From IMG/VR virus record IMGVR_UViG_3300037421_000071: a DNA stretch of 43,846 nt. One strand, 5' to 3'. The position numbers and the translations under genes were made by a program. Below the pieces are notes generated by a model, which ran no database searches, was not told the origin of the DNA, and was given only the letters and a program-made list of their open reading frames with translations. The stretch is from a virus. Shown one piece after another: positions 9,797 to 43,846 of this stretch. How positions within the stretch are numbered: position 1 is the first letter of the stretch; the number at the start of each line of letters is the position of its first letter.

Positions 9797-10029
9797 CGTC
9801 GTAGCCTCGCGTACTTGGAGCTTGGGTGATATCCCCCACCAGTTCTCCGGTGGGCGTTAGCGTCGGCGTATGACAGCATCCTTTTCGCTGCGTCCATTGC
9901 CTGCCACTCACTTTCGCAACACACTGAGAGCCACCGTCCCCCGAGCCAGTGGTGCAGTCCCTCTTGCTGGCACTTCGCGCACGTGAGTGTTACCGGTAGC
10001 GGCACCTTGGACGTACATGAAACACCCAC
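9793..10029 (-). CDS. hypothetical Cys-rich protein
   Basis: 78-aa ORF (GTG start) with CAKC...CC. It overlaps the preceding gene by up to 40 nt, and its stop overlaps the next ATG. Confidence 0.4.
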   Translation of the reverse strand: MGVSCTSKVPLPVTLTCAKCQQEGLHHWLGGRWLSVCCESEWQAMDAAKRMLSYADANAHRRTGGGYHPSSKYARLRR

Positions 10030-10214
10030 GCCACGAGCATTGCAAGCGCGAACAACGCGAAGGTACTGGGTTCGGGGACCGAGGCGTTGGTGTGGAACGT
10101 CGCGGGCTTCGGGTCTTGGGGGTTAGAGATTTGGACCCATGCGACCGAGCCCGGGTAGCAGACGCCGAGGTGCGTGAAGTGGCTCTGTAGGTTCAGGCAT
10201 TCGTCCTGTGTCAT
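9990..10214 (-). CDS. small protein with PEP-CTERM-like C-terminus
   Basis: Called from ATG 10214 (MTQDECLNLQ...), which forms ATGA with the stop of an unlisted upstream 50-aa ORF. The C-terminus VPEPSTFALFALAMLVAWVFHVRPRCRYR has PEP, a hydrophobic helix and a basic tail. Confidence 0.5.
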   Translation of the reverse strand: MTQDECLNLQSHFTHLGVCYPGSVAWVQISNPQDPKPATFHTNASVPEPSTFALFALAMLVAWVFHVRPRCRYR

Positions 10215-10363
10215 CGTCGGTCCCTCCACATGACGTGATAGCGCATGTTCATGTTCTGGCGGTGATAGGTTCTGATTCGTTCGCGCCACAACCACCGTTC
10301 AGCGGGTCGTGCCCACAACTGGCGCGGATCGGGCGGGGTTTTCTGTTCGGTGATGTGCATCAT
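10211..10363 (-). CDS. 50-aa basic Trp/Arg-rich micro-ORF (tentative)
   Basis: Hand translation gives MMHITEQKTPPDPRQLWARPAERWLWRERIRTYHRQNMNMRYHVMWRDRR. Its start overlaps the VRR-NUC stop and its stop overlaps the next ATG (ATGA). It fills an otherwise unexplained 64-nt gap. Confidence 0.4.
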   Translation of the reverse strand: MMHITEQKTPPDPRQLWARPAERWLWRERIRTYHRQNMNMRYHVMWRDRR

Positions 10364-15254: not shown

Positions 15255-15623
15255 ATGGGCCAGCCGCACAGCATCCTTTATGGTCTCTCGATCAAGCACA
15301 TAGCGGAGACTTGCGGAGTCAGTCTCAAGACCGCGAGCCGATGGAAAGCCGGGACAATCTGTCCCGGTTATTGCGAACTAGCGGTGCTCACGCGGGACCT
15401 CGGCTGCTTTGCGAAGGAATGGCAAGGCTGGACCGTGAACGGCCCCGATCTCGTCGCGCCTTCCGGCTGGTGCGTGAATCGGAACGACGCCCTCATCGTG
15501 CCGCTGATGCACTCGCAGATCGCCGCGCTGCGGGCGAAAATCGCGAGCCTTGAGGCGAGCCGCGATGACATCGAAGAACAGCCAGGACCCGGGGCAATTC
15601 CCGCCATCAACGCTTCGAGCTGA
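15255..15623 (+). CDS. DUF3653-like phage DNA-binding protein
   Basis: Called from ATG 15255. SIKHIAETCGVSLKTASRWKAG (HTH) followed by LGCFAKEWQGWTVNGPDLVAPSGW matches the DUF3653 pattern. TATATT lies 6 nt upstream of the ATG. Confidence 0.5.
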   Translation: MGQPHSILYGLSIKHIAETCGVSLKTASRWKAGTICPGYCELAVLTRDLGCFAKEWQGWTVNGPDLVAPSGWCVNRNDALIVPLMHSQIAALRAKIASLEASRDDIEEQPGPGAIPAINASS

Positions 15624-16095
15624 CGCTGAAGCCAAATACGAATATGACCCCGCTACCGGGCATTTCTGGTGGCGCCAAATTCCTAGAAGAGGTAAAGCCA
15701 AAGCCGGAATGCCAGCGGGCTGGATCTGCAAGCTGGGTTATCGGCTTTTGAAGGTTAACAGCCGATCTTATTACGCCCATCGGATCGCATGGCTACTAAC
15801 CTACGGATCTTTCCCCGCCATGCTCGACCATAAAAATTGCATCAAAGACGATAATAGAATTTCCAATCTAAGGCTTGCCTCCGCCGCCCAGAATTCAGCG
15901 AATCGGTCCAAACAATCCAACAATACGAGCGGTCTTAGGGGCGTCCTCTTGTACAAGAGGACCGGTAAATGGATGGCATCCATAAAGTACAACCGGAAGC
16001 AATATCACCTCGGATTCTTCACTTCGAGGGAAGAAGCATATGCGGTCTACTGCAAAAGGGCACGAGAAGTCTTCGGGGAGTATTGGCGTGAATAA
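15565..16095 (+). CDS. HNH (HNH_3) + AP2-domain homing endonuclease
   Basis: YAHRIAWLLTYGSFPAMLDHKNCIKDDNRISNLRLASAAQN is an HNH_3 motif, and SGLRGVLLYKRTGKWMASIKYNRKQYHLGFFTSREEAYAVY is an AP2 domain. GC is visibly lower than in the flanks. The start is uncertain, and the ORF overlaps the upstream gene. Confidence 0.75.
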   Translation: MTSKNSQDPGQFPPSTLRADAEAKYEYDPATGHFWWRQIPRRGKAKAGMPAGWICKLGYRLLKVNSRSYYAHRIAWLLTYGSFPAMLDHKNCIKDDNRISNLRLASAAQNSANRSKQSNNTSGLRGVLLYKRTGKWMASIKYNRKQYHLGFFTSREEAYAVYCKRAREVFGEYWRE

Positions 16096-16235: not shown

Positions 16236-17042
16236 ATGCTAGCTTTCCACAACGATCCGGCCATCAAAGAGAAGTACCTCAACCGCGTGCGTCTGCACGA
16301 AGCTCAGGACGAAATTATTCACGGCAAGTATTGGGAGCGTGGCAAAGGGTGCGCGGTTGGTTGCACTGTCCACAGCTCGTCTCATAAAGCGTTCGAGACC
16401 GAGCTCGGCATCCCAATCATGCTGGCGCGGCTTGAGGATCGATTATTTGAAGGGATGGCGAACGGCAACTCCAAGCAATTCCCGGCTCGCTTCCTGAATG
16501 CCATTACGCCAGGCTCCGACCTATCGCGCGTGGGCTGGCAATTTCTCTATTGGCTCCTCACGGAAGACCTCGCGAGCCGCGACGATCCGCGCGTTTCTAA
16601 GGAGATCAAAGCCTGCGCGGATGTGCTGATCCCACTCACAAAGGGTGAGCCATGTGATCGCAACGCCGCAGATCTGGCGCGGCGAGCCGCTTTAGAGGCT
16701 CGGTCTAAGGCGTGGACCGCCGACGCCGCCGCCTACGCCGCCTACGCCGCCGTCAACGCCGACGCCGCCGCCAACGCCGTCAACGCCGACGCCGCCGCCA
16801 ACGCCGCCAACGCCGCCAACGCCGCCTACGCCGCCGTCAACGCCGCCTACGCCGCTGCCGCCTACGCCGCCGACGCCGCCGACGCCGCCGCCTACGCCGC
16901 CGCCGACGCCGTCAACGCCGCCGACGCCGCCGCCTACGCCGCCGCCGCTCGGCGCAAGTGCTATGAGCGAATGGCGGAGAAGCTTCTGCAGTTCATGGCC
17001 GATGCGCCAGTCGTGCCGTTCTGCGCGGGGATTGCGGCATGA
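16236..17042 (+). CDS. protein with globular N-domain and ~75-residue alanine-rich A-A-(Y/N/D/V) repeat tract
   Basis: 268-aa ORF. The C-terminal third reads ADAAAYAAYAAVNADAAANAVNADAAANAANAANAAYAAVNAAYAAAAYAADAADAAAYAAADAVNAADAAAYAAAA. Confidence 0.6.
   Translation: MLAFHNDPAIKEKYLNRVRLHEAQDEIIHGKYWERGKGCAVGCTVHSSSHKAFETELGIPIMLARLEDRLFEGMANGNSKQFPARFLNAITPGSDLSRVGWQFLYWLLTEDLASRDDPRVSKEIKACADVLIPLTKGEPCDRNAADLARRAALEARSKAWTADAAAYAAYAAVNADAAANAVNADAAANAANAANAAYAAVNAAYAAAAYAADAADAAAYAAADAVNAADAAAYAAAARRKCYERMAEKLLQFMADAPVVPFCAGIAA
16718..16947 (+). repeat. in-frame GC-rich tandem repeat tract (3/9/27-nt periodicities)
   Basis: Built from gcc-gcc-tac / gcc-gac / gcc-aac units. It includes an exact 27-nt tandem duplication gccgtcaacgccgacgccgccgccaac at 16749-16775 and 16776-16802. 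Confidence 0.85.
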
Positions 17043-19662: not shown

Positions 19663-20175
19663 ATGCGACCGAAACAATTTGAATTGGGAACTGTCTTCGG
19701 GTCTTTAACGCTCATCAGGCTATTACCATCAGTAAACGGACGAAGGTTCGCTGAATATCAGTGTGTTTGCGGTGTAAAAAAGGCAATAAATTTCCAAAAT
19801 GTCTACCGAGGTTTATCTACCTCATGCGGTTGCCAAAAACCCGTGATCAACGGAGACATCCATAGAACTCATGGGCTCTCCCGCACAACCGAATATCGAA
19901 TCTGGTCTTTAATGATTCAACGCTGCGAAAACCAGAAGAATCCAGCCTATGACAGGTATGGAGGCCGAGGCATTAAAGTCTGCGTTGCGTGGCACAGATT
20001 TGAGACGTTCTTAGCAGACATGGGTGAGCGTCCCAAAGGCAAATCTATAGACCGAATTAACAACGATAGTGATTACGAGCCAACCAACTGTCGTTGGGCT
20101 ACTGCGTTTGAACAAGTCCACAATCGCCGTCAACGGAAATTAAGACGCACCCCGCCGCCAGCTATGAAGTTGTAG
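19663..20175 (+). CDS. HNH-type endonuclease-like protein (free-standing, low GC)
   Basis: 170 aa. CVCG...CGC zinc motif, TEYRIWSLMIQRC, YGGRGIKVC, and IDRINNDSDYEPTNCRWATAFEQVHN (HNH-like tail). It is markedly AT-richer than the rest of the genome and is preceded by a 170-nt gap. Confidence 0.6.
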   Translation: MRPKQFELGTVFGSLTLIRLLPSVNGRRFAEYQCVCGVKKAINFQNVYRGLSTSCGCQKPVINGDIHRTHGLSRTTEYRIWSLMIQRCENQKNPAYDRYGGRGIKVCVAWHRFETFLADMGERPKGKSIDRINNDSDYEPTNCRWATAFEQVHNRRQRKLRRTPPPAMKL

Positions 20176-20315
20176 ATCAACACCAGCGCCACAAGCCCGA
20201 GAATAACCAACACCACGGTCTTGATCGGTTCTGGGATCGCCAGACGCTGTACGCCCCACCACACTAATGCGAAGGCCGCGAGTATGATGAAGATCAGGAC
20301 GACGGTCATTAACAC
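20130..20315 (-). CDS. small two-TM membrane protein
   Basis: 61 aa with two hydrophobic helices (VVLIFIILAAFALVWW and VVLVILGLVALVLIY). It is the last gene of the leftward arm, and its 3' end overlaps the convergent HNH-like gene by 46 nt. Confidence 0.5.
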   Translation of the reverse strand: MLMTVVLIFIILAAFALVWWGVQRLAIPEPIKTVVLVILGLVALVLIYNFIAGGGVRLNFR

Positions 20316-20328
20316 TGGACACCTCCAA

Positions 20329-20802
20329 TCATTGCAAACGTATTGACACTAGCGCTGCGTTGCGACCCTTGTTAATTGGGGTCGTTCCTAAATCCGAGAG
20401 ATGACAGTAATCGAACGATCTCAGCCGCCCCCAGTCAAAGAGGTAAGCGAGGCCCAGGTAGTAATTGGTATGGCTGCCGTTCACTCGGTCGACGTTCTGC
20501 AGGTAACTCGCACCGAGACTCGCACAGACTTCCCAACGGCAGGTACGGATTCCGGCGTGCCAGTCCCACGTCGTAGCGACTATCGAGGTCTTCCCCCAGA
20601 TGTTAGTGCCCGCAAAGACATCCACGCGATTGCCGATGGGCTGGTAGATTTGAAGGCCGAGTACGGGCCCCGTTCTCCCGGGCCCGAATGAAGCGCCGCC
20701 GTCTAGATCGAACTCAGCTCCCTTCGCCACCGAGCAGCGCCACAACAGCGCCACCAGAATCACGATGAAGAGGCCGACCAGCGCGAAGGTCTTGACGTTC
20801 AC
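20329..20802 (-). CDS. PagL-like outer-membrane lipid A deacylase (acyloxyacyl hydrolase family, putative)
   Basis: Called from GTG 20802, which forms GTGA with the i-spanin stop. It has a signal-peptide-like N-terminus (NVKTFALVGLFIVILVALLWRCSVAKG). The body has alternating beta-barrel-like sequence. The C-terminus FDYCHLSDLGTTPINKGRNAALVSIRLQ parallels the PagL active-site block H-x-S-N-x-G-x4-N-x-G. Confidence 0.55.
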   Translation of the reverse strand: MNVKTFALVGLFIVILVALLWRCSVAKGAEFDLDGGASFGPGRTGPVLGLQIYQPIGNRVDVFAGTNIWGKTSIVATTWDWHAGIRTCRWEVCASLGASYLQNVDRVNGSHTNYYLGLAYLFDWGRLRSFDYCHLSDLGTTPINKGRNAALVSIRLQ

Positions 20803-21227
20803 GGCTCCTTGAGTTCCTTGAGACACGCCCTGTAGAGGGCGCTCACGTAGTCGGCAGAGAGGGCAATTCCTTGCAAGCCTGGTCCCAAGTCAGGCCCGCT
20901 TCCAGGCCCGCCAGGCACTTCTCGAACGCTCCCTCCGGGGGTGCTGGGTGCTGTAGGAGCTCCGGGCTTACCTGTCGGGGCTGACACTGGACGGGTGTAG
21001 CACTGCACCCTTGGAGGGTAAGCAGGAGCAATGCCCCGCAGACGGTTGATTTCAGCAGTGAGTGCATCGGTGGTTTCCTGTGCGATCTTCACATCGGCGA
21101 TCGCTTGTTTCTCCGCTGCCGCCTTTTCGCGGGCAAGACAGTTCGCCTCACCCTTGTTGTAGATCCAGATCCCCACCCCGATCACGAGGGCGAGAATGGC
21201 AAGATACATGACATCCTTAAGCGGCAT
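20799..21227 (-). CDS. i-spanin (Rz-like)
   Basis: 142 aa with an N-terminal TM helix (VMYLAILALVIGVGIWIY), a coiled coil, and a Pro/Gly-rich periplasmic part. It contains an embedded lipoprotein ORF in another frame. Confidence 0.7.
   Translation of the reverse strand: MPLKDVMYLAILALVIGVGIWIYNKGEANCLAREKAAAEKQAIADVKIAQETTDALTAEINRLRGIAPAYPPRVQCYTRPVSAPTGKPGAPTAPSTPGGSVREVPGGPGSGPDLGPGLQGIALSADYVSALYRACLKELKEP
20843..21067 (-). CDS. o-spanin (Rz1-like lipoprotein), fully embedded in the i-spanin gene
   Basis: 74 aa with an ATG start. The signal plus lipobox is GALLLLTLQG|C. The mature part is short, Pro-rich and has several Cys, which is the classic embedded Rz/Rz1 architecture. Confidence 0.65.
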   Translation of the reverse strand: MHSLLKSTVCGALLLLTLQGCSATPVQCQPRQVSPELLQHPAPPEGAFEKCLAGLEAGLTWDQACKELPSLPTT

Positions 21228-21534
21228 TGGGCGGCACCGGCTTGGTTCCTGTAACAGTCATGGCAGCATCGGCTTCAACGGACGGGACGCCGGCGGCAGC
21301 GAGTGCATTACTCGCGCCCTGACTGACTATGACATTGGTAGTGCGCGTGGCTTGTACTGCCCGCCAGATGATCCCGAGGGCTCCAGCGAGCCTTACTGCC
21401 GCATATCCTTTCTCACCGACTAACGCCACGACGGAATCACGGTAGCCGGTAAGATCCGCAAGTGCAGCGCTACCGAGCACGGTCGCAATACTCTTCTGAC
21501 CGTGCCGAAGCCACATCATGTGAAGCCAGTTCAT
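21217..21534 (-). CDS. putative holin / lysis-cassette membrane protein
   Basis: 105 aa lying between the small TM protein and the spanins. It has two weakly hydrophobic segments (SIATVLGSAALADL and AAVRLAGALGIIWRAV). The call rests mainly on position. Confidence 0.35.
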   Translation of the reverse strand: MNWLHMMWLRHGQKSIATVLGSAALADLTGYRDSVVALVGEKGYAAVRLAGALGIIWRAVQATRTTNVIVSQGASNALAAAGVPSVEADAAMTVTGTKPVPPNAA

Positions 21535-21650
21535 AACTTGGCTTTGAGTTTCGAGAGATCTGTCGCCAACGTCACACCGAACTTGTAGTAGAGATAGGCT
21601 CCCGCACCCATCCCGACAAGCACGCCTAAAATGAATGACACGATACTCAT
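21531..21650 (-). CDS. 39-aa single-TM protein (holin/antiholin candidate)
   Basis: Called from ATG 21650 (MSIVSFILGVLVGMGAGAYLYYKFGVTLATDLSKLKAKL). It forms ATGA with the endolysin stop. Confidence 0.45.
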   Translation of the reverse strand: MSIVSFILGVLVGMGAGAYLYYKFGVTLATDLSKLKAKL

Positions 21651-22093
21651 ACGTTCTCCTGTGGTAGTTCCCATACCCCAGATTCCATCATGTCCATCTC
21701 CAGCACCGCCCTCTGAGGCGTCTGCTTGGCCCAATCACTATCGAGCCCCGCCTGTGCAGCCCCCGCGAAATCCCGCGCCTGAAGCGCTGTCGTGAAGTTC
21801 GGCCAGTAAAGAGGGCTCTGGCCCATCTGGAAACACATGCTCACGCAAACCGCCTGGCGCACATCATTCATGTCCGGGTAATGCGGAAAGCCCTGCGCGA
21901 GTTGGCGCGCATGATCCATGTCCTGTTCCAAGAGTGAGTCCGCGAGTTCTTGCGTGATCGTGTGTCCAGTCCAGTCGACCGAGTTATTCAAGAGATGCCC
22001 CCAGCCGATAGTCCACAATCCCCGGGAATCTCTATAGGCTGTCAACCGGCAGCCCTCGAAGTGCTCGATCATGGCTTGGGCGAGATCGGTCAC
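21647..22093 (-). CDS. endolysin, GH24 (T4/lambda-type lysozyme)
   Basis: Called from GTG 22093, which forms GTGA with the upstream stop, giving 148 aa. IEHFEGCRLTAYRDSRGLWTIGWGH carries the E-D-T catalytic pattern of GH24 lysozymes. Confidence 0.85.
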   Translation of the reverse strand: MTDLAQAMIEHFEGCRLTAYRDSRGLWTIGWGHLLNNSVDWTGHTITQELADSLLEQDMDHARQLAQGFPHYPDMNDVRQAVCVSMCFQMGQSPLYWPNFTTALQARDFAGAAQAGLDSDWAKQTPQRAVLEMDMMESGVWELPQENV

Positions 22094-22593
22094 TTCCCAC
22101 TCCAATGAGCGATGTAGAAGATCCCCATGATGATCGTCGCTCCGAGTGAGATCACTGCAATGATCGTTGCCCAGCTGTCTCTCGTACCTTCCTTCACGCC
22201 AGCGGTGATATCGCGACGTTGACTCACGCTGCTCTCGAGCTTGTCTACCGCTTCCTTCATCGTCCTGAGTGCCTGTTCGCACTCGGAGCGTGGCATAAGC
22301 AGACGCGACTGATCGTTGAGGCTCTGTCTGAACTCGTTCACCGCATCGAAGCGTTTCTCAGAGGCCGTCTCGGCCTTGATCACGGCGCGGTCTGCAGCTG
22401 TAAGCGCAGCTTCCACCGCACTCTTCTGAGCGAGGAACGCGGCTGTAAGTGCTTCCGACTGTGCGAGAAAGCGCTGTTGGTAGCGCAGATCATTCGCGGC
22501 GATGAGTTCGGTCGTCCGCTTATCATTCGATTCGACGAGCACGCGCAGCGTCCGCAGCGACCACTCATCTCCGTTTGGATCACGGTCGGCCAT
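22090..22593 (-). CDS. coiled-coil protein with C-terminal TM anchor (function unknown; coupled to endolysin)
   Basis: Called from ATG 22593 (TGATG overlap with the tailspike stop), 167 aa. A long helical region is followed by WATIIAVISLGATIIMGIFYIAHW at the C-terminus. Confidence 0.55.
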   Translation of the reverse strand: MADRDPNGDEWSLRTLRVLVESNDKRTTELIAANDLRYQQRFLAQSEALTAAFLAQKSAVEAALTAADRAVIKAETASEKRFDAVNEFRQSLNDQSRLLMPRSECEQALRTMKEAVDKLESSVSQRRDITAGVKEGTRDSWATIIAVISLGATIIMGIFYIAHWSGK

Positions 22594-24368
22594 CAGTTCG
22601 GCACATCCGCCGGAGTCCTCGAGACCTCCCGCCACACGTTATCGGGCGGGTAGTACTCGAAGTCTATCGAGCGGCTATTGGCATTGGCGGGTTGAGTCCA
22701 CGCGGCGAGACGATAAAAGGTGTCGAAGGTCGCCGTGCCCAAAGCCCCACCCGAGACGTTCTTGATCGTGATCTTTATCCTCTGTGCCGAAGTTGGAGTC
22801 GTGCCACTCGGATTACTGATACTAAAGGCAGTGTTGTTGTTAGCGGTGATCGTGAACGAGTCCCCGCCGTTATTGTTGATGGCGATGGTTGCGCCATAGG
22901 TGGGCTGAACAACCGTCTTCTGCGTAGAAATGAACGTCGCCCGCCGTGTCACGGTGTCAAAGGTCGCGGCATCGCCCGCCCCCGCGATGTTGATGCAGGC
23001 CTGACCCGCGCGGTTCACCAGGGCGATATCACTCCCGGACCCTGCGCTGTTGCGCACCAGCAAGGTCGAAGTCGTGGCAAAGGGATTCTCGAAACACCCC
23101 TGCGCGAAGCCTGTCGTCACACTCGTGAAGAGATACGCGACCCCGGGAGTATTCGCCCCCTTGCCCAGACTCCAGTTACCGGTCGCGCGCTCGATGATGA
23201 GCGGAACGTAAGTTGTGATCGCGGAACCCGGCGCGGCATACGCCGTGATGGTGAAGTTACTGAGCTGATCGAGCGAAAAGCCCGCGCCCACGAGCCCGCC
23301 CATGCCGGCGCTCCACATGGCACTGCCATCGGCACCGAAGAGTATGTTAGCGCGGCGGTTGTCGAAGCCGCCGGTGGAAGTCGTTGGTATCCCCGAACTG
23401 TTATCGATCCAGATGTAGGGGTACCAGTTGGCGATGATGCGCAGGCCGTTTCCGTTATGCGCGGGATTGATGTAGGACGCCGTCGCCGCAACGGTATTGG
23501 TCAGTGCCGGAGTCCAGGTGGCTGTGGTTGCGTTGAGGGTGAGTTGAACGGGGCGCACTTCACCGTCCGAAAACGTCACCTGATAGAGACCCGTCGGGGT
23601 GGACCAGGCCAAGGCCAGCGTCGCCGAGGTAGCGCCCGAGACGATCGAAGCCGTGAACGTTATCGTCGCGGAGGTCTGCGGCGTATAGGTGAAGATACGA
23701 ACCTGATCGCCGTCGTATTGTACGGGATAGCCCGAATAGGACTCGCCCTGACTGTAGTCATAGACCGTGATCGGTGTGGTACCCGAGAACTGCGGGTAGC
23801 TCGCGAGATTCGTTACCTGGTAACCGTAGTGACAGGACGCCGGGACGGTGATGACCACCCCACCGAGACTCGCGGCGCCCACATCGAACGTGGCGATACG
23901 GATCGCCGTGTTGAGTGCCGCGAGATTCTGGGCGCTAAGGTTCGACTGCTGCGCACCGTAGCGCCTGACGTCGTACGGCAGATACGACAGGTTGGCGGGT
24001 GTAACGGCCGCCGCGGTCTCGGCGGTCGTGATGGCGTAACTACCGAGTGCGATGCCTGAATTGATCGTGATCGGGAAATAGAGGTTATCGACCGTACGGA
24101 CCGGAGATGTGGGCGGATCGGTGTCACTCGCCGGTGCGAGGACGAATTTGTAGGCGAGCGTTGGATCGCCCCAGATCGTCCAGGCACCGTTCGAATCGAG
24201 AACGACCGGGTTACTGTTCTGTGTAGCCTGTGTGGAGTCGGTCCAGGTGGCCTGCTTGGTCGAACTCCCGGCGAGATACGTGAACAGCTTGAAGCCCGCA
24301 GCCGGAGCCCCCGAATTGTTCGGGTTCTGGAACTGCAGCATCATCGGTGGGGAAAGTGTGACGGTCAT
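22593..24368 (-). CDS. tailspike / tail fibre with pectate-lyase-superfamily beta-helix
   Basis: 591 aa. The N-terminal LQFQNPNNSGAPAAGFKLFTYLAGSSTKQATWTD...NPVVLDSNG is typical of fibre N-domains. It is followed by YLPYDVRRYGAQQSN...NTAIRIA...GGVVITVPAS, a Pectate_lyase_3-like entry motif. Confidence 0.7.
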   Translation of the reverse strand: MTVTLSPPMMLQFQNPNNSGAPAAGFKLFTYLAGSSTKQATWTDSTQATQNSNPVVLDSNGAWTIWGDPTLAYKFVLAPASDTDPPTSPVRTVDNLYFPITINSGIALGSYAITTAETAAAVTPANLSYLPYDVRRYGAQQSNLSAQNLAALNTAIRIATFDVGAASLGGVVITVPASCHYGYQVTNLASYPQFSGTTPITVYDYSQGESYSGYPVQYDGDQVRIFTYTPQTSATITFTASIVSGATSATLALAWSTPTGLYQVTFSDGEVRPVQLTLNATTATWTPALTNTVAATASYINPAHNGNGLRIIANWYPYIWIDNSSGIPTTSTGGFDNRRANILFGADGSAMWSAGMGGLVGAGFSLDQLSNFTITAYAAPGSAITTYVPLIIERATGNWSLGKGANTPGVAYLFTSVTTGFAQGCFENPFATTSTLLVRNSAGSGSDIALVNRAGQACINIAGAGDAATFDTVTRRATFISTQKTVVQPTYGATIAINNNGGDSFTITANNNTAFSISNPSGTTPTSAQRIKITIKNVSGGALGTATFDTFYRLAAWTQPANANSRSIDFEYYPPDNVWREVSRTPADVPN

Positions 24369-43070: not shown

Positions 43071-43846
43071 GCCGCACTATCCCATTTCACGATGCGGACG
43101 TTCGCGGCGAGTGTATGAACGATGCCGAAGCCACCTAAGTAGTACCAGGCGATACCCTTGCTCCGTCCGTAGTCGGTCGGGATCTTGCCGCGCATCTCCT
43201 CGGGTACCGCGATTGCTTCAGCGACCGTGTCGTTACCGAAAAAGAAGATCCAGTCGGACTTCGCCTGACTCCAGGCGGTCGTTGTGATGCCGTCCGTCCC
43301 GGTGCCCTTGGCGATGTTGGTCTGCTCGATGTAGCGCACGTTCTCGTAGCGGCCGATCTCGCCGTTCATGATGAGATTGAAGCCGGTGTCGGAATACTGG
43401 TGGATCGTCTCGAGGTTGTTCTTGAACGTTCGCAGCGTCGTCGGCCAGGCGAGCGCGTAGTAGTCATCCGCGATGTAAGCGGGGATGTTGCGTTCCTTCA
43501 TCGTGTCCACGATGGATTTCGCATGGGAGTTGGAGTAGGCGACCGTGTTGGTACCCGTGACGGTGCCATTGGTGTAGAGCTGAATGGCCGATGTATCCGT
43601 ACCGCTCGATGCGATTACCCGCAGCAGTGTCTGGTTAAACTGTGTCCACGCGAGCCGATCGAAGCTCTTCACCGCATCGTTCTTGAGGACTTTCTTGATG
43701 ACATCCTCGACGGGGAACTTCGAGAGGTTGTCGAGCTTGCCGGAATAGGGAAGCGAGTTCCCGGCTTCGGTGATGGTGAGCGTGCCCTGTACGATGGTGA
43801 AGTTCGTCTCGGGCATGGTATTGGTTTCGGTCAATACCCCGCCCGC
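43067..43846 (-). CDS. major capsid protein (HK97-fold type), C-terminal 259 codons; the 5' end lies beyond the window end and is found at 128..319
   Basis: The ORF reads to the window edge. It lies directly after the scaffold gene on the closed map. Sequence features include DDYYALAWPTTLRTFKNNLE, GEIGRYENVRYIEQTNI and GIAWYYLGGFGIVH. Full length is ~323 aa when joined with 1..319. Confidence 0.75.
   Translation of the reverse strand, partial: AGGVLTETNTMPETNFTIVQGTLTITEAGNSLPYSGKLDNLSKFPVEDVIKKVLKNDAVKSFDRLAWTQFNQTLLRVIASSGTDTSAIQLYTNGTVTGTNTVAYSNSHAKSIVDTMKERNIPAYIADDYYALAWPTTLRTFKNNLETIHQYSDTGFNLIMNGEIGRYENVRYIEQTNIAKGTGTDGITTTAWSQAKSDWIFFFGNDTVAEAIAVPEEMRGKIPTDYGRSKGIAWYYLGGFGIVHTLAANVRIVKWDSAA
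43720..43846. repeat. 127-bp exact direct repeat, copy 2 (identical to 1..127)
   Basis: See copy 1. Confidence 0.95.

Follow-up and report, generated by a model that had tools for sequence, protein, structure and literature searches.

Phage lysis of Gram-negative bacteria is currently explained by holins, endolysins and spanins or disruptins. Also known already are phage-encoded modifiers of lipopolysaccharide (LPS) which act on the O-antigen, small outer-membrane barrels of the Lom type and, in the lysis cassettes of mycobacteriophages, lipid esterases. In our literature searches we found neither a characterised phage enzyme attacking the lipid part of LPS nor a report of a phage-encoded enzyme of the PagL type. 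Here we analyse the IMG/VR virus record IMGVR_UViG_3300037421_000071, a DNA of 43,846 nucleotides (nt) which in the following is called the window, and in particular one PagL-like gene which directly follows a pair of spanin genes. New in our opinion is a phage-carried clade of the PagL superfamily which has an amide as third triad residue and is often tied to lysis genes. An earlier reading made from the letters of the window alone (the sequence-only reading) had described the gene as a lipid A deacylase appended to the spanin genes and had named no characterised example of such an enzyme in a lysis cassette, which is consistent with our searches of literature and databases.

The closest described proteins are the PagL enzymes (PF09411; PDB entry 2erv; Salmonella PagL), which, as is predicted for the window protein, consist of a signal peptide and a small eight-stranded outer-membrane barrel. 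Common to PagL and the window family is the motif H-x-S-[ND]-A-G-x4-N-x-G, distributed over the end of strand 7 and loop 4. PagL uses a Ser-His-Glu triad and an oxyanion hole which includes a conserved Asn (review PMC4402001), and in a His/Ser double mutant of Salmonella PagL deacylation is abolished (PMC4958258). While PagL genes are chromosomal and regulated by the host (by PhoPQ in Salmonella), the window gene is phage-encoded and probably coupled to spanin genes. In addition, the mature domain of the window protein is about 20 residues shorter than that of PagL, and the phage clade has a Cys pair without a counterpart in PagL.

A second enzyme to be compared is OMPLA (PldA), whose lipid-facing Ser-His-Asn on the outside of an outer-membrane barrel resembles the site of the window protein in active-site chemistry only. 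In OMPLA the His-x-Ser lies on one strand and the Asn 14 residues further on the next strand. However, OMPLA is a twelve-stranded, calcium-dependent dimer, and the eight-stranded window protein is not a member of this group; no Pfam or PDB sequence match to OMPLA was obtained for the window family, and in the Foldseek ranking OMPLA takes positions 49-50. On the phage side, Lom and Bor of lambda are small outer-membrane proteins encoded within or next to late or lysis operons like the window gene, and Bor adjoins Rz/Rz1 in lambda. However, neither of them is an enzyme, both are expressed from the prophage, and the window protein shows no Pfam or PHROG family match to them. The two-component spanins (Rz/Rz1) are the direct neighbours and a possible functional partner of the PagL-like protein. 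They work by membrane fusion and not by hydrolysis, and the PagL-like gene is an additional gene and not a spanin. Finally, LysB of mycobacteriophages is a lipolytic esterase of the lysis cassette which completes lysis through an attack on the outer membrane's lipid anchor in the host (PMC5707550). This mycolyl-arabinogalactan esterase would be the nearest functional analogue if an accessory role in lysis is the right explanation of the window gene; it is nevertheless soluble, has a different fold, acts on the mycomembrane of Actinobacteria and is not homologous to the window protein.

Searching for relatives of the window protein retrieved 37 close homologs (E 1e-33 to 1e-103), all from metagenome assemblies, and an exhaustive HMMER search in 1.84 billion representatives gave 129 clusters at E<=0.001. 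Compared alone with Pfam, the window protein matches PagL (PF09411) as the sole family reported, with an E-value of 0.0012 and 19.4 bits. At the family level PF09411 is matched by 30 of the 37 close homologs (E<=0.01) and by 95 of 121 wider full-length relatives (E<=0.001; best 4.1e-14), and none of these 121 matches any other Pfam family. A profile built from the 121 sequences (A2) finds, among 177,635 PDB sequences, only PagL 2erv from Pseudomonas aeruginosa (E 1.1e-8, covering residues 2-145 of 150); the phage clade is about 16% identical to PagL. The membership in the PagL family which the sequence-only reading had claimed is therefore borne out by the family and by its profile, but not by the single protein, whose score stays below the Pfam gathering cut-off (19.4 against 23 bits). 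PHROGs, NCBIfam and PADLOC returned no match for the window protein.

The structural comparison leads to the same family. Foldseek places both chains of the PagL structure on top for the model of the mature protein (2erv_A and 2erv_B, E 5.5e-4 and 7.4e-4, TMq 0.71 and 0.73), and the next natural protein in the ranking is the OmpA barrel with an E-value of 0.019. A structure prediction had been proposed as a check, and the models show an eight-stranded barrel with PagL as the top PDB match at a TM-score of 0.71-0.73. It is well supported that the window protein is an enzyme which belongs to a divergent clade of the PagL superfamily.

The N-terminus, MNVKTFALVGLFIVILVALLWRCSVAKG followed by AEFD after the predicted cleavage site, has a Lys in the n-region, a hydrophobic core of 16-17 residues and an A-x-G site. 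In the 37 homologs an A-x-[AGS] followed by a near-invariant Ala-Glu is kept at this junction, so that inspection of the features and the conserved cleavage motif agree with the signal peptide noticed from the sequence. A lipoprotein was considered and rejected, as the Arg-Cys after the hydrophobic core is no lipobox. The AF2 model shows a helix at residues 3-20 and then eight strands. Its mean pLDDT is 92.4 for the full-length protein, modelled with the homolog alignment, and 94.1 for the mature domain alone, with eight strands in both. The faces of the strands alternate between hydrophobic and polar as in a membrane barrel, and the barrel proposed from the sequence is thus found again in both the model and the inside/outside pattern of hydrophobicity. 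Two cysteines, Cys88 and Cys93, which are invariant in the close phage clade, probably form a stabilising disulfide.

Within this barrel, the C-terminal block FDYCHLSDLGTTPINKGRN matches the PagL block VRAIHYSNAGLKQPNDGIE residue for residue, the parallel to the PagL active site which the sequence-only reading had drawn. The only invariant columns in the alignment of the 121 sequences, whose mean column identity is 17%, are H134, S136, N144 and G146. According to hhalign and HMMER these residues pair with H126, S128, N136 and G138 of PagL, and N148 pairs with E140 (the PagL numbers F104, H126, S128, N136 and E140 were read from the 2erv sequence in the HMMER alignment). Tyr114, which is Y or F in the family (N[YF]), sits in the HMMER alignment at the position of PagL Phe104 ('NF'), reportedly a defining residue of PagL. 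In the AF2 model strands 127-136 and 146-155 form a hairpin in which 134 pairs with 148 and 136 with 146, and H134, S136 and N148 follow the same register as F130, Y132, A150, V152 and I154, which face the lipid. Because of this shared register and the hairpin, the three residues are expected to be aligned on the outer face of the barrel close to the extracellular rim, in the manner of PagL; the lipid-facing geometry of the triad is derived from the register of the modelled strands. From its conserved residues the PagL-like protein is predicted to be catalytically competent.

None of the three computable observations which the sequence-only reading had named as refuting it came true, since a PagL-family match, the eight-stranded barrel and the aligned His and Ser are all present. 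The His-Ser-Glu triad expected by the sequence-only reading was only partly recovered. His and Ser are aligned and invariant, and so is the oxyanion Asn, but the Glu is replaced by Asn148. At the position aligned with Glu140 we found N or Q in 37/37 close homologs and in 12/12 viral loci; D is the residue in 93 distant representatives, and throughout the family the position is N, Q, D or E-like. With Asn148 at this third position the triad of the window protein resembles the Ser-His-Asn of OMPLA (His142, Ser144 and Asn156), which has the same spacing as H134, S136 and N148. However, the Asn occurs at the third site also in chromosomal PagL-like genes of alphaproteobacterial metagenome-assembled genomes (MAGs; L023, L025) and is therefore not a phage-specific innovation.

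These findings bear on the question whether the protein could be an outer-membrane lipase like OMPLA, with a Ser-His-Asn triad which cuts outer-leaflet phospholipids or other acyl esters. Such an enzyme would act once the envelope is perturbed, and the lysolipids it forms would make the outer membrane permeable, similar to the action of host OMPLA in colicin release. For this explanation speaks the Asn or Gln at the third triad position, 14 residues past the His in every close relative, with the spacing of OMPLA; the identity of only 16% to PagL, which leaves room for a shift in specificity; and the lysis-cassette position, which a lytic lipase would fit better. On the other hand, every homology that could be detected is to PagL and none to OMPLA, the barrel has eight strands instead of twelve, the OMPLA chains appear far down in the Foldseek list, and the Asn of the chromosomal L023 and L025 shows that this residue is not confined to phages. 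We consider an OMPLA-like lipase unlikely.

Even further from our expectation is a non-catalytic outer-membrane barrel of PagL descent, for example a surface protein similar to Lom or Ail or a mask for a receptor. Phages do carry small outer-membrane barrels, the BFVD matches of the model are generic phage outer-membrane proteins, and the acidic triad residue has been lost. But the only residues invariant in the 121 sequences are the catalytic His and Ser, the oxyanion Asn and the Gly opposite the Ser, and neither the window protein nor its 121 relatives match the Pfam families of Ail/Lom, OmpX or OmpA (nor does the window protein match such a PHROG). Without catalysis such a pattern of invariance is difficult to account for. 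This explanation is essentially excluded, and we would assign it only a very small probability.

The PagL-like open reading frame (ORF) begins with GTG at 20800-20802 and ends with TGA at 20329-20331 on the minus strand. The stop codon TGA of the i-spanin gene (20799-20801) shares 3 bases with the PagL-like frame at its GTG, resulting in a GTGA across 20802-20799 and a 4-nt overlap of the two genes; the overlap claimed before can be read directly in the sequence. An AAGGAG precedes the GTG directly on its 5' side. A longer frame could start from a GTG at 20826, while the 157-aa form is the one used by the database copy (P0001) and by the closest homologs. A sigma-70-type scan found neither a promoter-like nor an intrinsic-terminator-like site between the spanin and the PagL-like ORF, and a promoter or terminator of its own was rejected for the gene on this basis. 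Its GC content of 0.58-0.61 is the same as that of the surrounding phage genes, and a recent foreign insertion was rejected on this ground; the HNH gene nearby differs in this respect (Table 1).

Because of the GTG start and the overlap with the neighbouring gene one could suspect a chance ORF or a frame called wrongly across the spanin region. The 37 homologs with E-values down to 1e-103, the 129 clusters, the confident AF2 fold and the kept synteny leave hardly any probability for this. A chance or mis-called ORF is essentially excluded, and the claim that the ORF is a real gene holds on the grounds of its homologs, clusters, confident fold and synteny.

The gene is the sixth in a chain which starts with ORF181 and continues with the endolysin, a 39-aa transmembrane protein, ORF105, Rz/Rz1 and the PagL-like gene, followed by a 61-aa membrane protein. 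Overlaps of 4 nt connect ORF181 with the endolysin gene, the endolysin gene with that of the 39-aa protein, and the spanin with the PagL-like gene; by ORF coordinates the 39-aa gene and ORF105 overlap in the same way, and ORF105 and the i-spanin by 11 nt. The neighbours of the PagL-like gene constitute a lambda-type embedded spanin pair with Rz1 inside Rz. The sequence-only reading had called them spanin genes, and they are real as judged from the embedded lipoprotein ORF with its lipobox LQGC and from weak Rz-like PHROG matches.

Studying the neighbourhoods of the relatives, we counted at least 8 contexts where the PagL-like gene is 0-2 genes away from a lysis cassette. The contig L006 is syntenic with the window and has, in this order, tail fibre, ORF181, endolysin, Rz/Rz1, the PagL-like gene and the 61-aa protein. 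On the contig of the homolog P0002, which is 83% identical to the window protein, genes for a lysozyme and for proteins of 74, 63 and 150 aa precede the PagL-like gene, which is attached with an identical 4-nt overlap. In L005 it closes an operon containing a lysozyme-like gene. In L028, L029 and L030 the genes just ahead of it are those of a DUF5675 protein, small ones and an Rz-like one, and in L031 it lies between an upstream Rz-like gene and a downstream integrase gene. In L001 and L002 it lies ahead of a GH108 endolysin and an Rz-like spanin. Because the endolysins of these phages belong to different families (GH24, GH108, DUF5675-type), the adjacency to lysis genes is not simply inherited synteny.

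Our preferred reading, which we hold with moderate confidence, is that the gene encodes a late-made outer-membrane acyl esterase, probably a lipid A 3-O-deacylase, which remodels the outer membrane of the infected cell and is accessory to spanin-driven rupture. Lipid A as the substrate and the role in lysis are what we infer. The gene would be transcribed, and probably translationally coupled, together with the spanins; the overlap of the closely packed genes is a fact of the sequence from which co-transcription and a probable translational coupling are deduced. The protein would then be exported via Sec, lose its signal peptide and fold, as predicted, as an eight-stranded outer-membrane barrel. 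A lipid-facing site like that of PagL would be formed at the level of the outer leaflet by Ser136 and His134 (upper end of strand 7), Asn148 (strand 8, opposite His134) and Asn144 (loop 4), and there, by homology to PagL, the 3-O acyl chain of lipid A would be hydrolysed. Under-acylated LPS packs less tightly, so the enzyme would pre-condition the outer membrane of the doomed cell by looser packing, curvature and vesiculation. In Salmonella the expression of PagL indeed raises vesiculation and promotes membrane curvature (PMC4958258). The last step, in which the enzyme would assist the rupture by spanins and in addition alter the LPS on debris and vesicles met by the progeny, is the least certain one.

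Several points weigh against this reading. Beginning with the family assignment, the single protein scores below the Pfam cut-off, and the A1 profile alone reaches PagL in the PDB at only E = 1, so that the wider A2 profile was needed. The acidic triad residue is gone, and the C-terminus ends with Leu-Gln and not with the aromatic residue typical for outer-membrane barrels. That lipid A and not another acyl ester is the substrate is an assumption. As far as is known, bacteria tolerate PagL expression well. In Salmonella PagL is expressed without envelope stress (PMC4958258), and with this tolerance deacylation alone is unlikely to be lytic. Furthermore, the phage already has a complete spanin pair. 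Finally, the more distant members of the family (41-51% identity) are found apart from lysis genes: following the prohead protease in a T4-like phage (L004), before the portal gene (L007), upstream of terminase-like genes (L009-L011 and L014) and, in a large phage, beside a phosphoesterase and genes of metabolic type (L017). The link to lysis genes is thus recurrent in the family, but not obligatory.

The end of a late operon, moreover, is the classic site for accessory 'moron' genes. It is possible, although we judge it clearly less probable than the preferred reading, that the same enzyme is such an accessory gene and remodels LPS for the competitive benefit of the phage. This could consist in superinfection exclusion, in the shedding of receptor-bearing vesicles, in fewer progeny lost on debris or, for temperate relatives, in lysogenic conversion, and the gene would lie next to lysis genes only because operon ends tolerate insertions. 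With this would agree the many genome positions occupied by the family; the place of the gene between late genes and an integrase in L031, hence in a temperate relative; the presence of csrA and of an Acyl_transf_3 gene, typical of O-antigen acetylation, a few kb away in L001 and L002; the HNH genes flanking several loci, which suggest a mobile cassette; and the fact that PagL drives vesiculation without envelope stress (PMC4958258). However, the genome in the window is apparently complete and has no integrase among the ORFs scanned, so lysogenic conversion is unlikely here. The PagL-like gene starts in overlap with the spanin stop and without a separate promoter-like site, the adjacency to lysis genes recurs in phages with unrelated endolysins, and lipid A is buried, so that the removal of a single acyl chain is no obvious block to adsorption.

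Returning to the lysis-accessory esterase, a phage relative of PagL tied to spanins is a testable candidate for a chemical weakening or remodelling of the outer membrane late in infection. Vesicle release, the number of progeny lost on debris and the endotoxicity of phage lysates could also be affected. A natural Ser-His-Asn/Gln variant of PagL also informs on the minimal mechanism of a barrel esterase and could be a compact tool for LPS engineering. Going further, one could propose an unrecognised class of enzymes in the lysis cassettes of Gram-negative phages, namely barrel esterases which deacylate lipid A or outer-leaflet lipids, assist the spanins as a counterpart of LysB and spread as a small cassette, possibly together with HNH genes. 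We put this forward tentatively, as a generalisation which we rather doubt. If the gene is only an accessory one for surface remodelling, it adds modestly to the phage accessory genes already catalogued.

Table 1. Position of the PagL-like gene, of its parts and of the neighbouring genes in the window (aa, amino acids).
Feature	Position	Strand	Basis or remark
PagL-like outer-membrane acyl esterase gene	20329..20802	-	157 aa; GTG start, TGA stop
Signal peptide, residues 1-28, predicted cleavage between AKG and AE	20719..20802	-	by inspection
Mature 129-residue, 8-stranded beta-barrel domain	20332..20718	-	AF2 and Foldseek
Cys88...Cys93 pair (CRWxxC)	20524..20541	-	invariant in 37 close homologs; flanks predicted periplasmic turn between strands 4-5
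Active-site block H134-L-S136-D-L-G139-T-T-P-I-N144-K-G146-R-N148	20359..20403	-	invariance and hhalign/HMMER alignment
i-spanin, Rz-like, 142 aa, N-terminal transmembrane segment	20799..21227	-	PHROG Rz-like E 0.002-0.004; L006 homolog
o-spanin, Rz1-like lipoprotein, 74 aa	20843..21067	-	other frame inside i-spanin gene; PHROG Rz-like E 0.006-0.009
105-aa lysis-cassette gene (ORF105), holin/antiholin candidate	21217..21534	-	position and tight packing only
39-aa single-transmembrane protein, holin-like	21531..21650	-	inspection of start codon and ribosome-binding site; ATG overlaps endolysin stop (ATGA)
Endolysin, GH24 phage lysozyme	21647..22093	-	Pfam Phage_lysozyme 3.1e-18; PHROG endolysin 2e-31
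61-aa two-transmembrane protein, last gene of the operon	20130..20315	-	starts 13 nt past PagL-like stop
HNH homing-type endonuclease, convergent	19663..20175	+	PHROG 374 E 4e-51; GC 0.44-0.48 vs ~0.60

ORF181 (181 aa; in the region 21531-22635, minus strand) has a C-terminal transmembrane segment, and its counterpart in L006 is strongly conserved (E 1e-65). The stop of ORF181 overlaps the likely GTG start of the endolysin at 22093 (GTGA), and with this start and that at 21650 the longest-ORF coordinates of the endolysin (21647-22282) and of the 39-aa protein (21531-21734) overstate both genes. ORF105 has no family match in the Pfam or PHROG searches. The o-spanin has a lipobox which is cut between LTLQG and C, and its homolog in L006 is found with E 8e-13. 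The gene for the 61-aa protein has a strong ribosome-binding site, GGAGG, 6 nt ahead of its GTG; the protein is kept at the same place in L006 (E 1.6e-6), shows a weak PADLOC match to a '2TM effector' (E 0.006) and may be a partner of the esterase.

In three differing loci an HNH gene of phrog_374 lies directly 3' of the PagL-like gene, namely in the window, in L029 (5520-6170) and in L032 (5540-6187). The copy of the window is 43% identical to that of L029 and 37% to that of L032. A different gene, HNH_3, is situated at the end of the lysis cassette in L001 and L002. Homing endonucleases may therefore move the PagL-like cassette or target a nearby site. In the phages encoding the homolog P0035 (L001 9585-11381; L002 6656-8512) genes for CsrA and for an Acyl_transf_3 protein lie a few kb downstream. 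O-antigen acetyltransferases are usually of the latter type, so that the genome with the P0035 homolog may encode a second function which modifies LPS. In L031 (2010-3795) the late genes end with the PagL-like gene, which is followed by a divergent phage integrase; at least some of the carriers are therefore temperate.

The PagL-like family is small and is found mostly on uncultured phage contigs. Among 50,697 GenBank phage records neither a megablast search with the locus nor tblastn searches with the window protein and the family members P0037 and P0071 gave a match, and with PagL 2erv as tblastn query the same records returned one match at chance level (E 0.6). A first scan of representative bacterial genomes with a pattern of the close family found no relative. 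With a degenerate DNA pattern designed by hand on the active-site block we obtained 10 loci, of which seven encode full-length relatives and one, L027, a fragment of 40 aa. Distant PagL-like genes in MAGs of Planctomycetota and Alphaproteobacteria account for six of the seven. The seventh, L026 (6697-7188, minus strand), is a close relative (E 5e-52) with an Asp at the third triad position, and it belongs to an 86-kb contig binned as an uncultured proteobacterium, which may be part of a bacterial chromosome, a prophage or a large phage. Its PagL-like gene lies about 600 bp from a groES/groEL-like pair. A paper on a 'lipid A deacylase' of enterohaemorrhagic Escherichia coli (EHEC) was considered as a phage precedent and set aside, because it concerns LpxR and not a phage gene.

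With regard to the rest of the genome, bases 1-127 are identical to 43720-43846, an exact direct repeat of 127 nt at the contig ends, and the window probably represents a complete genome, assembled as a circle, of about 43.7 kb. The window ORFs scanned include no integrase gene, and no tRNA genes were found in the window. The phage looks like a P22-like podovirus, and its relation to phages of Proteobacteria is distant, with at most 33% identity for a gp10-like protein. At the end of a 101-aa ORF (9990-10295, minus strand) there is a PEP-CTERM sorting motif which passes the Pfam cut-off (E 9e-6) and hints at a host with an exosortase system. In the early region, the ORF 16236-17042 (plus strand) contains at 16678-16980 an array with a periodicity of 9 nt, which is probably a collagen-like Gly-X-Y repeat, and shows a weak tail-fibre PHROG match. 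The early region also contains a second gene for a homing-type endonuclease (15550-16095, plus strand), which combines HNH_3 and AP2 domains.

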